Assembly (NCBI GenBank): GCA_965215015.1
Contig: OZ244042.1
Span: forward strand, 544,001 to 608,000
DNA: 64,000 nt
Direction of reading: 5' to 3'
From: Candidatus Poribacteria bacterium
Lineage (GTDB): Bacteria; Poribacteria; WGA-4E; PCPOR2b
The notes below the pieces were generated by a model. The model searched no databases and had not been told where the DNA came from. It saw only the letters and a program-made list of their open reading frames with translations. Numbering within the stretch: position 1 is the first letter of the stretch; each line of letters opens with the position of its first letter. Shown here in pieces: positions 735 to 59,379 of this stretch. Position numbers and translations under genes: made by a program.

Positions 735-839
735 GTGGTCCGCCATTTACATCTGTAATATGCAAGTATACTCAAGCATGATGAGTCGGCAAAGAACCCT
801 ATTTCACAGCCTTCCCGCGAAAGCTACCATGTAAAATCA

Positions 840-1013
840 GATTCAGGTAGGTCTCCTGACTCACGACAACACATTGTCCGCCTTCCCATCCTGACTTGGG
901 ACAGTGGCTTTCTGGACACGGTTCAAGGTCGTTTACAGTGGCGGGGCCGTGGCGGATTCTCACCGCGCTTCCCTGTTCTCTGGCAATTTTCATCAATTGT
1001 CAGCACCTGAATC
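840..1013 (-). ncRNA. Cobalamin (AdoCbl) riboswitch
   Basis: Minus strand carries the consensus blocks AGGGAA..CGGTGAGAATCCG..CGGCCCCGCCACTGTAA..GCCACTG..GGGAAGG..B12 box AGTCAGGAGACCT, with P1 GATTCAGGT/ACCTGAATC. Confidence 0.95.
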
Positions 1014-1065
1014 AACAAATATGCAATTTTGAAATGTTTCTTCGCTTCTGTTTGAAGCGTCGCCA

Positions 1066-48468: not shown

Positions 48469-49128
48469 TCATTTTGATATGGCACGCTCAATAGACCAAT
48501 GCCGGTCAGAGCTTTGAACGACAATAGCGTCGGCAAGGCTCGTTTGATCGAGCATCACTTCGATTTCGGGAATGGTAAGGGCGGCGAGAAAGGAATCGTA
48601 GAAGAGCTTCTTTTGGTAGAGGGTATCGTCAGCGGCGTAACGGTCAACGAGGGCTTGGGCGGCTTCAGGCGTATCAGGACGCATTAGGTCGCGGATGAGA
48701 ATTAATCCGCCGGGACGAATGATACGGCTGATCTCCCGAAAGGCGGCCATCGGATCGGGGAGGTGATGGATAATGCTGTTGGAAATCACACCATCAAATG
48801 ATAGATTGGGATAGGACAAGGATTTTGCATCAACACATTCCAATGCAATCCGATCCGCCAACCCGGCTTCAGCGACGTGCTGCTCGCCGAGTGTAAGCAT
48901 ATTTACTGAGAGGTCAATCCCGGTGATTCGGATCTTGGGGCAACGCTGGGCTAAAAAGATGGGAATGTGGGCGGGACCTGTCCCAAGATCGAGAAAATGT
49001 CCTTCACTCGCACCAAGCTCAACCACACGCTCCACGAATGCTGTGTTGACAGCAGAGTGATCCATGGCGTCATACGCCTCCGCTTCTTCACGGGTATCCA
49101 TCACTTCGGGTTCTAAAATACGCTTCAT
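48469..49128 (-). CDS. Class I SAM-dependent methyltransferase
   Basis: RILEPEVMD, LDLGTGPA, GIDLS, FDGVISNSIIHH, RPGG...RDL. AAGGAG RBS. Confidence 0.9.
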   Translation of the reverse strand: MKRILEPEVMDTREEAEAYDAMDHSAVNTAFVERVVELGASEGHFLDLGTGPAHIPIFLAQRCPKIRITGIDLSVNMLTLGEQHVAEAGLADRIALECVDAKSLSYPNLSFDGVISNSIIHHLPDPMAAFREISRIIRPGGLILIRDLMRPDTPEAAQALVDRYAADDTLYQKKLFYDSFLAALTIPEIEVMLDQTSLADAIVVQSSDRHWSIERAISK

Positions 49129-49176
49129 TGACTCTCCTTTCGGGTTGTTCACTCCATAAAAAATATCGAATCTTAC

Positions 49177-49362
49177 TGGCAAGACCCCGTGCCCTTAGGC
49201 TAGGGAAAGCCTGTTAGATGATACCTAACAAGCTTTGGGCAGAGCGTTGTCCATTGTGAGAGCAATTGTCAGACGGACTTCGGTTCGCTGTCGTGTTGAC
49301 CGCACCATTCGATACCCTAACGGATAACAATCCCTACCCTTCAGGATGTGGGAATACGTCAA
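49177..49362 (+). mobile_element. Non-autonomous IS200/IS605-family (IS608-like) mini-element with TnpB reRNA-like scaffold
   Basis: Begins after TTAC (49173-49176), left hairpin CCCCGTGCCCTTAGGCTAGGG, right hairpin TCCCTACCCTTCAGGATGTGGGA ending in GTCAA. No transposase or tnpB ORF. Confidence 0.7.
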
Positions 49363-49888
49363 AGACGCTAACTACTCCGATAGTTCTTTCATCTCTTTCC
49401 CGTAAACTTCAATTTTCAAATTGTGGTGAGATTCCCATCAGCTTGCGGGTGTGGAAGGGTTTCTGGTATTTCGCTTGAAGTAGAATAGCTTTAGTAACAG
49501 TGTGGATTTTGTCAATTGATTGCTTCTGGCGAAATTGGACTTTGGCTTGCGGCTGAATCTTAACTGGCGTGAATTTCAGCATTCCGGGGGTTTTTCTCCA
49601 ATGGGCTGCCGCTGTATCCTTATTTTTTTTATAGACTGTTCCAGCTCCTTTATTCCGAATAATTGCAGCAGCCATTTGTCCCACCAACCTGTAGGCCAAG
49701 TTTTCCAAATGCCTGGAGGTTTCCGTCGTTCATTTCAGGGCTTGAACAGTGTCCTCCGTTCGTATCAAGTGCGTAATTTTCACTTCAGATGTAGTTCGAT
49801 TGAGGAATTATCGCGCTGCAGCCACTCCACATCAAACACCCCCAGAAAAAGAACAATAACTCCAGTTTTGGTGCACTGAAACGGGGCG

Positions 49889-59052: not shown

Positions 59053-59379
59053 GAGGACACTCACCTCCTTACAATGTTCAAGTTCTCTTAGGAAATCGGA
59101 GAACCTAAACGACTCAATCCCTCGGACTGTTAAACGGTGGCTTCCCCTGTTTTGGAAAAGTTCTGGGAGCCAAAATTTTTTCACTTGTAAGTGCCTTATT
59201 TCGTAACGCAATAAGTAGATAGGTGCTTTTTCTCTGAATTTAACGCAAAGTCACAGAATTACAAAACATCCATGAATCTCCACAAGCTGTCTTGAACAAT
59301 GTCTTTGCTCGCTTGCGTTTTATTAAAAGCCAGTAACTACTTATTCCCTTTCGTAATCGGTTCGTCAATGGATTTATTG

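Follow-up and report, generated by a model that had tools for sequence, protein, structure and literature searches.

Results

The locus and its empty sites

The window analysed here, a stretch of 64,000 nucleotides, belongs to the genome of a Candidatus Poribacteria sponge symbiont, which is assembled as a single contig of 5.94 Mb and is 98% complete as judged by marker genes. It contains a class I SAM-dependent methyltransferase gene on the minus strand (48469-49131; Pfam Methyltransf_11, 7.8e-21), which in fact begins with the ATG at 49131, preceded by AAGGAGAG. An element on the opposite strand starts 32-36 nt upstream of this ATG. On its other side lies an unannotated frame of 99 aa, also on the minus strand (49409-49708). 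The insertion lengthens the gap between the methyltransferase gene and the same-strand gene upstream of it by about 199 nt. In another part of the window, and unrelated to the element, we noted a cobalamin riboswitch (829-1025, minus strand; Rfam RF00174, 109.7 bits).

Orthologues of the methyltransferase are found in 19/19 congeners, with 83-89% identity. Homology at this site breaks off near 49148 and is found again from about 49363 onward. The element was present at none of the 11 orthologous loci inspected. The original prediction had proposed to look for an empty-site allele, and such alleles exist: the left and right flanks are joined directly in 5 of these 11 loci by BLAST (L048, L052, L053, L056, and L058), a sixth empty site (L051) was judged by eye, and the remaining five loci differ on the right side. 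The junctions read ...AAAAAATAT|AAACGC in L048 and ...AAAAAAATA|GACGC in L056. With the element in brackets, the window's own genome reads ...AAAAAATATC[GAATCTTAC...ACGTCAA]AGACGCTAAC..., and the same site in the two congeners reads ...AAAAAATATAAACGCTAAC... (L048) and ...AAAAAAATAGACGCTAAC... (L056). No duplicated target bases appear when the element is compared with the empty sites. The segment from 49164/49168 to 49362 is thus a real insertion of about 195-199 nt, which occurred beside (T)TATC without target duplication, after this species had split from the sampled congeners.

At the same site, congener L054 (G013:C52, locus position ~2150-2180) reads ...AAAAAATATAGAATCTTTCATC..., is missing some 20 nt of the flank usual for empty sites and has AGAATCTT, which corresponds to the first bases of the left end in the window. 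We considered this site as a scar of the element and judged a small deletion in the empty site more likely. Contigs from four runs of one study match the window over 48900-49700, with neither joints nor variants; these contigs are possibly the source of the window DNA itself. A search of the runs recorded as RNA gave none that contains 48900-49700.

Boundaries, target and right end of the element

A DNA search of the own genome with the flagged stretch returned 17 matches at E<=0.001, the stretch itself included. More sensitive blastn yielded 41 pieces, which form a left and a right block, each with a sharply defined outer edge. The left block of homology between copies begins at 49164. In the right block (49236-49362), every copy closes with ...GTCAA and is followed by unrelated sequence. 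The homology thus starts earlier than the 49177 originally given, and positions 49363-49385, the last part of the stretch originally flagged, are host flank, present in the empty sites. The description of the element as ORF-less was accurate. The largest frames that touch it code for 45 aa on the minus strand and 70 aa on the plus strand, the latter extending into the flank, so that the largest frame inside the ~199-nt element is 45 aa, too short for a transposase. Likewise, in the 17 own-genome copies inspected, no open frame of TnpB size enters the right block.

The target, or transposon-adjacent motif (TAM), lies at 49163-49167 on the plus strand and reads ATATC here, the family consensus being TTATC. 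The C at 49167 may belong to the flank or be the first base of the element, and the boundary is ambiguous by this one base. We found TTATC directly 5' of left ends that otherwise differ from one another in 33 of 42 tnpB-bearing loci, as compared to 7 of 41 in a control window, and also 5' of the left ends in the own-genome copies examined. In contrast, insertion 3' of TTAC, which had been taken as the mark of an IS608-like element, did not hold. The TTAC at 49173-49176 lies inside the first left-end hairpin, and the homology among copies runs 9 nt further to the left, as far as TATC. Since the other copies shown have TTGC at this place, the TTAC of the window copy represents a point change that weakens the left-end stem, and not a target.

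On the other hand, the predicted right-end hairpin closing with TCAA is present, with TCAA at 49359-49362. The right-end motif GGAGTAYGTCA(A/C), followed by unrelated flanks, occurs in 38 of the 42 tnpB-bearing loci (final A in 34, final C in 4). The start of the left end and the finish of the right end are not inverted copies of one another; that is, the element has no terminal inverted repeats. Instead, it carries subterminal hairpins at both ends, a feature common to the tnpB-bearing elements, and those of the left end are weak in this copy. IS608 of Helicobacter pylori also has subterminal hairpins, inserts 3' of a short motif and ends in TCAA. The family logic of the window element is therefore the same as that of IS608, although the target is not TTAC and there is no tnpA-tnpB pair.

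The host flank that adjoins the right end on the plus strand (49363-49382; AGACGCTAACTACTCC...) directly adjoins the left flank in the empty sites of congeners. This would-be guide segment may form the guide part of an omegaRNA when RNA reads through the right end. A 16-mer of AGACGCTAACTACTCC is unique in the genome, and its matches with two mismatches or fewer are not commoner than those of a reversed control.

The left end and its 31-nt hairpin

The left end (49168-49205, plus strand) comprises two small subterminal hairpins in a degraded state. It aligns with the left ends of other copies, at genome positions 59064, 1563432, 3991938, 4891324, 4067264, 5027874, and 640407, as well as with the left end of an intact element in a congener (L042). 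Folded as DNA, the left end of the window copy reaches -4.8 kcal/mol (z -0.5), as against -8.5 kcal/mol (z -3.0) for L042.

Between the left end and the right block lies a 31-nt hairpin (49206-49236, plus strand) with a perfect core, TGTTAG-N7-CTAACA, and a covarying outer stem, situated inside the left end of one sub-lineage of copies. This is the TGTTAG/CTAACA stem noticed originally. Its arms, AAAGCCTGTTAG and CTAACAAGCTTT (49206-49217 and 49225-49236), measure 12 nt each and are 92% complementary, and its DNA fold of -6.5 kcal/mol was equalled by 0/200 shuffles. We counted 55 TGTTAG-N5-9-CTAACA sites genome-wide, with about 2 expected. The hairpin is a member of a separate family of small palindromic repeats. 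The same insert is found in the left end of the copies at 59064, 4067264, and 5027874, and the palindrome lies inside the right block of the copy at 1029143 and of several more. The palindromes are partly clustered, for example at G000:C1 4993-9268, 2381312-2384032, 3929471-3929656, and 4742299-4742786 in the own genome. They often lie within the ends of IS200/IS605-type elements, and their outer stems covary. They recall REP elements, or the SMR-A repeats of Haloquadratum that target PATEs, as these are described in the account of Dyall-Smith et al. (2011, PMC3119063).

The right block has the position and fold of an omegaRNA scaffold

The right block (49236-49362, plus strand; 127 nt) comprises an omegaRNA-type scaffold and the right end. 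It is homologous to positions 1441-1579 of L042, where the homology starts 66 nt before the tnpB stop (1506) and ends at GTCAA (1579). This alignment, which leads from inside the 3' end of the L042 tnpB gene to the right end, places the block in the omegaRNA position, and a resemblance to the reRNA at the 3' end of tnpB had indeed been anticipated. In the own genome, a profile of 49236-49362 lies directly downstream of 15 of the 19 remnants of the tnpB zinc ribbon (PF07282).

The structure written by hand for this block comprises helix 1 (49236-49253), nested helices 2-4 with a UUCG loop (49262-49294), a conserved linker (49295-49312), helix 5 (49313-49326), the subterminal hairpin of the right end (49331-49353), and a tail, ...ACGTCAA, which ends at the shared right boundary (49362). 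Its 29 pairs were evaluated across 21 copies aligned with MAFFT, some of them gene-less and the others linked to tnpB. In this alignment, 86.7% of the cells were paired, as compared to 38-50% when the partners were slid by 1-3 columns; 15 of the 29 pairs were changed on both sides, as compared to 4-8 when slid; and the covariation score was 0.33, as compared to 0.09-0.14 when slid, a value reached by 0/500 shuffles; all these measures are to be read with the structure being derived from the same sequences and with the kinship of the copies inflating them. Double changes between tnpB-linked and gene-less copies are plain in the alignment for helices 1, 2, and 4.

Support from covariation had been named as a check, and two of the predicted stems have it. 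The TGGGCA/TGTCCA stem is present, with changes on both sides in 4 of its 7 pairs across copies, and so is the CGGAC-TTCG-GTTCG tetraloop hairpin, with such changes in 3 of 5 pairs. There is no such support for the GTCA/TGAC helix, which is 77.4% paired, a value matched by 311/500 shuffles, and whose third pair is unpaired in 11 of the 21 sequences. A possible long-range helix of UUGAY (49296-49300) with GUCAA (49358-49362) is 91% paired and has no pairs changed on both sides. Folded as a single sequence, the 148-nt RNA has an ordinary minimum free energy (z -0.42). RNAalifold on a MAFFT alignment of 46 sequences recovered two helices only, because the 3' half is poorly aligned.

At gathering score, Rfam had no family within the element or close to it, and at E<=10 there were only three chance matches to eukaryotic lncRNAs or snoRNAs; five longer gene-less relatives gave no Rfam match at E<=1. 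We built a covariance model of the right block, which matches the window copy over its full length (119 bits, E 4.5e-28). With this model we obtained at least 63 matches at E<=0.001 in the own genome, with 150 of 1232 first-look candidates scored, and the window copy is the 10th by score among the 63 matches listed. At least 22 of these blocks have a tnpB remnant just upstream and at least 41 have none. Every helix of the window block can form. It has single mismatches only, one of which is common to tnpB-linked copies. The covariation is no proof of selection on the window copy itself, as it may have been fixed in tnpB-bearing ancestors.

By DNA similarity, the right block occurs in 17 of 19 congeners and in none of 21 genomes of other genera. 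By covariance model, with stricter filters, it was detected in 55 of the 101 genomes sampled from the phylum, including 12 of the 12 congeners sampled, and in 7 of 18 genera.

The tnpB-bearing parent type

A parent element with tnpB, which had been suggested as a check, was found as a type in congener L042, and other copies of the element are present in the own genome too. L042 consists of TTATC, left-end hairpins, a promoter-like site, TTGAAA-17-TATAAT (11/12), a structured leader, tnpB, and the right end GGAGTACGTCAA, in this order. Its tnpB gene codes for 378 aa (PF01385, 4e-21; PF07282, 1.6e-20). In 36 of 41 related loci of other Poribacteria, tnpB is open over at least 360 aa, and full-length frames for the Y1 transposase are present in congeners. 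These congeneric tnpB-only elements of the IS1341 group (for example L042 and L070-L110) share with the window copy the left-end type, the TTATC flank, the GTCAA right end, and the 127-nt block. They differ from it in having a promoter, a structured leader, and a tnpB gene of 375-379 aa, all of which the window copy lacks.

The leader is conserved and visibly structured from the promoter to the tnpB start (L042:279-369 and the same region of L070-L110). Its sequence is TTGTCTTTCGTGGGAG...CTCCCAC...ATGAAAGACAGAAAGAC; from locus to locus, substitutions in the inner hairpin compensate one another, and it is possible that the leader represents a regulatory 5' UTR of tnpB.

Typical gene-less relatives carry a promoter and a 5' module

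Typical gene-less copies, both in the own genome and in congeners, measure 330-400 nt (L002, L003, L019, L020, L036, L037, and others). Their left end is separated from the omegaRNA block by TTGAAT/TTGAAA-17-TATAAT and a 5' module of about 110 nt; promoter-bearing copies of the own genome include those at 1563048-1563432 and 4691188-4691600. The window copy has neither, and its left end, 31-nt hairpin, and omegaRNA block stand in direct succession. From this comparison of sequences, we conclude that an internal deletion removed the promoter and the ~110-nt 5' RNA module from the window copy.

The 5' module is located on the minus strand at L020:1629-1760, L037:1629-1760, L002:1635-1766, and L003:1614-1745; other gene-less copies have it at L036:1368-1499 and L019:1368-1499, and also in L005-L007 and others. 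At least four different architectures of the module retain a hairpin whose loop is of the GGGGTAAAATCC type and whose stem covaries (for example GC:10/AU:5/GU:3 and GC:12/UA:4). In the second hairpin, covariation with a GAC loop was seen by eye. The module occurs in none of the 42 tnpB-bearing elements examined, its loop motif was found 0 times inside them, and it has no Rfam match. We also considered the module as a leftover of tnpB or of its leader, and rejected this origin: BLAST against the 42 tnpB-bearing loci gave one significant match, which lies outside the element.

Decay of the window copy and loss of the partner enzymes

A consensus scan of both strands over 49000-49800, which is blind to read-through or non-sigma-70 promoters, found no promoter-like site, whereas relatives of the window copy have one (TTGAAT-17-TATAAT). 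A read-through or non-sigma-70 promoter may serve this copy. Of the 45 columns with a conservation of 90% or more, the window block departs from the consensus at 3, which places it at rank 34-37 of 46, in the worse third. Its nearest relatives share 82% identity in congeners and 77-81% in the own genome. As no sister copy in the own genome is closer than 81%, there is no sign of recent activity. In addition, the identity to the closest copy is no higher than that of orthologous genes between these species.

We could not find an intact tnpB gene in the own genome. PF07282 gave 19 matches, the longest open frame being 109 aa, and PF01385 and TIGR01766 gave 4 matches and 1 match, none of them intact. 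With the L042 protein as query, tblastn returned 55 pieces, none of which spans positions 1-378, and an HMM of congener TnpBs matched 39 open frames, the longest of 173 aa (of 378). An intact Y1 tnpA is likewise missing: PF01797 gave only two matches in the own genome, one interrupted by TAA and with an altered HUH motif, the other a 91-aa fragment preceded by stops. This absence bears on the present mobility of the element and not on its origin. About 170 nt downstream of a broken Y1 tnpA (G000:C1:1533127-1533726), the right-end model has a weak hit (E 2.4e-4), and remnant and hit together are probably the relic of an autonomous, tnpA-bearing element of the same family.

Altogether, at least 63 omegaRNA/right-end blocks remain in this genome along with about 39 tnpB fragments, with no intact tnpB or Y1 tnpA, while congeners have many intact ones. 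It looks as if one entire transposon family has decayed in this species.

Discussion

In this study, we characterized a short insertion upstream of a methyltransferase gene in a poribacterial genome. The reading we favour, with a probability of roughly 0.78, is that the element is a gene-less derivative, of the PATE/MITE type, of a tnpB-only transposon of the IS200/IS605 family, a type abundant in Candidatus Poribacteria, and that this copy is now inert. With the promoter, the nuclease and the transposase missing and the left-end hairpins weakened, the window copy is most likely an immobile and unexpressed fossil. Comparison of the sequences suggests that it is neither mobile nor used as a guide.

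Elements of this kind have been described before. Haloquadratum walsbyi PATEs, as presented in the description by Dyall-Smith et al. (2011, PMC3119063), have no terminal inverted repeats, carry palindromes near their termini and insert without target duplication. They are too small to code for a transposase and derive from IS605-type elements (with an IS1341-type tnpB) by deletion of the core. The window element is alike in all these respects, and it shows each of the criteria for PATEs given in that description. The genomic setting is similar as well, since the tnpA and tnpB genes of H. walsbyi are mostly pseudogenes and small mobile repeats are inserted in the ends of its elements, as in the genome studied here. 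However, the PATEs of H. walsbyi are archaeal and unrelated in sequence to the window element, and the paper predates the omegaRNA concept.

The link to omegaRNAs comes from a preprint by Meers et al. (2023, PMC10055086), which reports that TnpA moves such elements and that TnpB, together with an RNA encoded by the element, re-cuts the vacated site. According to this source, PATE-like elements without any protein gene frequently code for an omegaRNA, which depends on TnpB supplied in trans. The PATE-like ISGst elements of Geobacillus stearothermophilus described there are protein-less, keep the ends of tnpB elements and an omegaRNA, and require TnpB and TnpA in trans, as would be the case here (PMC10055086). 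In contrast to the Geobacillus elements of that report, the window copy resides in a poribacterial host, has a TTATC-like TAM and no promoter, and belongs to a genome where intact TnpB and TnpA were not found; in Geobacillus, the partner enzymes are present and omegaRNAs are seen in small-RNA data (PMC10055086). If these findings applied to the family studied here, an element with a cognate Y1 TnpA in the cell would move as single-stranded DNA. A transcript of the element that continues past the right end into the flank would then guide TnpB, which would re-cut the empty site, TTATC followed by AGACGCTAAC....

Whether the window copy itself still works in this way is another matter. The original prediction was right in seeing a non-autonomous IS200/IS605 mini-element composed of a left end, a scaffold, and a right end; its proposal of a working guide that borrows TnpA and TnpB in trans fared worse, as neither enzyme is intact and no promoter-like site was found. 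A working element would produce an RNA that is loaded on TnpB supplied in trans and cuts the empty site, and TnpA in trans would move the element. In this regard, the scaffold is complete and scores highly with the covariance model, the would-be guide flank is exactly the conserved sequence of the empty site, the concept has been published for PATE-like elements in the preprint cited above (PMC10055086), and congeners have intact tnpB and tnpA genes. Nevertheless, we regard a working element as improbable. Intact tnpB and Y1 tnpA are absent from a single-contig genome that is 98% complete, the promoter that relatives have has been deleted and the scan detected no promoter-like site, the left-end hairpins are weakened, and no sister copy in the own genome exceeds 81% identity, so that recent activity is unsupported. 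An unassembled plasmid or an incoming element may supply TnpA and TnpB, and a TnpB supplied in this manner might still use the RNA block of the window copy, which the covariance model suggests is still in good shape.

The position of the insert raises the question of domestication. In reverse complement, the element would lie in the leader or promoter of the methyltransferase gene, where its hairpins would modulate transcription or mRNA stability. It is directly upstream of the start codon and ribosome-binding site, it contains stable hairpins, and it moves the methyltransferase gene ~199 nt further away from its upstream neighbour on that strand. Yet there is no sign of selection. This species alone has the insertion, which none of the 19 congeners shows at the site, neither strand has a terminator-like or promoter-like site, and dozens of like copies lie at unrelated sites; we hold such a regulatory role to be very improbable. 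As for hairpins that merely happen to cluster in a spacer between genes and were never mobile, the unremarkable minimum free energy of the 148-nt RNA (z -0.42) is what would be expected, but a multi-copy family with sharp ends, the homology to tnpB elements, and the empty sites refute this view, to which we assign next to no probability. The inert, gene-less derivative of a tnpB-only element is thus the reading that we retain.

The typical gene-less relatives are open to a more speculative reading, which we think rather unlikely. They might be self-promoted "guide-RNA parasites" and not simple deletion products, the window copy being a decayed member that has lost its 5' domain. In place of tnpB, these relatives would have a conserved and covarying 5' domain fused upstream of the omegaRNA, made up of a hairpin with a GGGGUAAAAUCC-type loop and then a second covarying hairpin, and this domain might help the RNA to compete for TnpB from other elements. 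In a bolder variant, the promoterless window copy may be read through and may pre-position a homing guide for an incoming TnpB.

Gene-less IS200/IS605 elements that encode omegaRNAs are already published, and the window copy is a worn further member of this class. Among the papers searched, we found none naming both Poribacteria and TnpB. The flagged element itself is an ordinary outcome, a decaying transposon relic. Our analysis adds a documented insertion with matching empty sites for a gene-less element with an omegaRNA scaffold in an uncultured phylum of sponge symbionts. It also provides a usable definition of the family, consisting of the TAM-like TTATC, the right end GGAGTAYGTCAA, and a covariance model of 133 positions. 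The more interesting points lie outside the window copy, namely a genome that keeps at least 63 such blocks without a surviving nuclease or transposase, and the extra RNA domain carried by the relatives.
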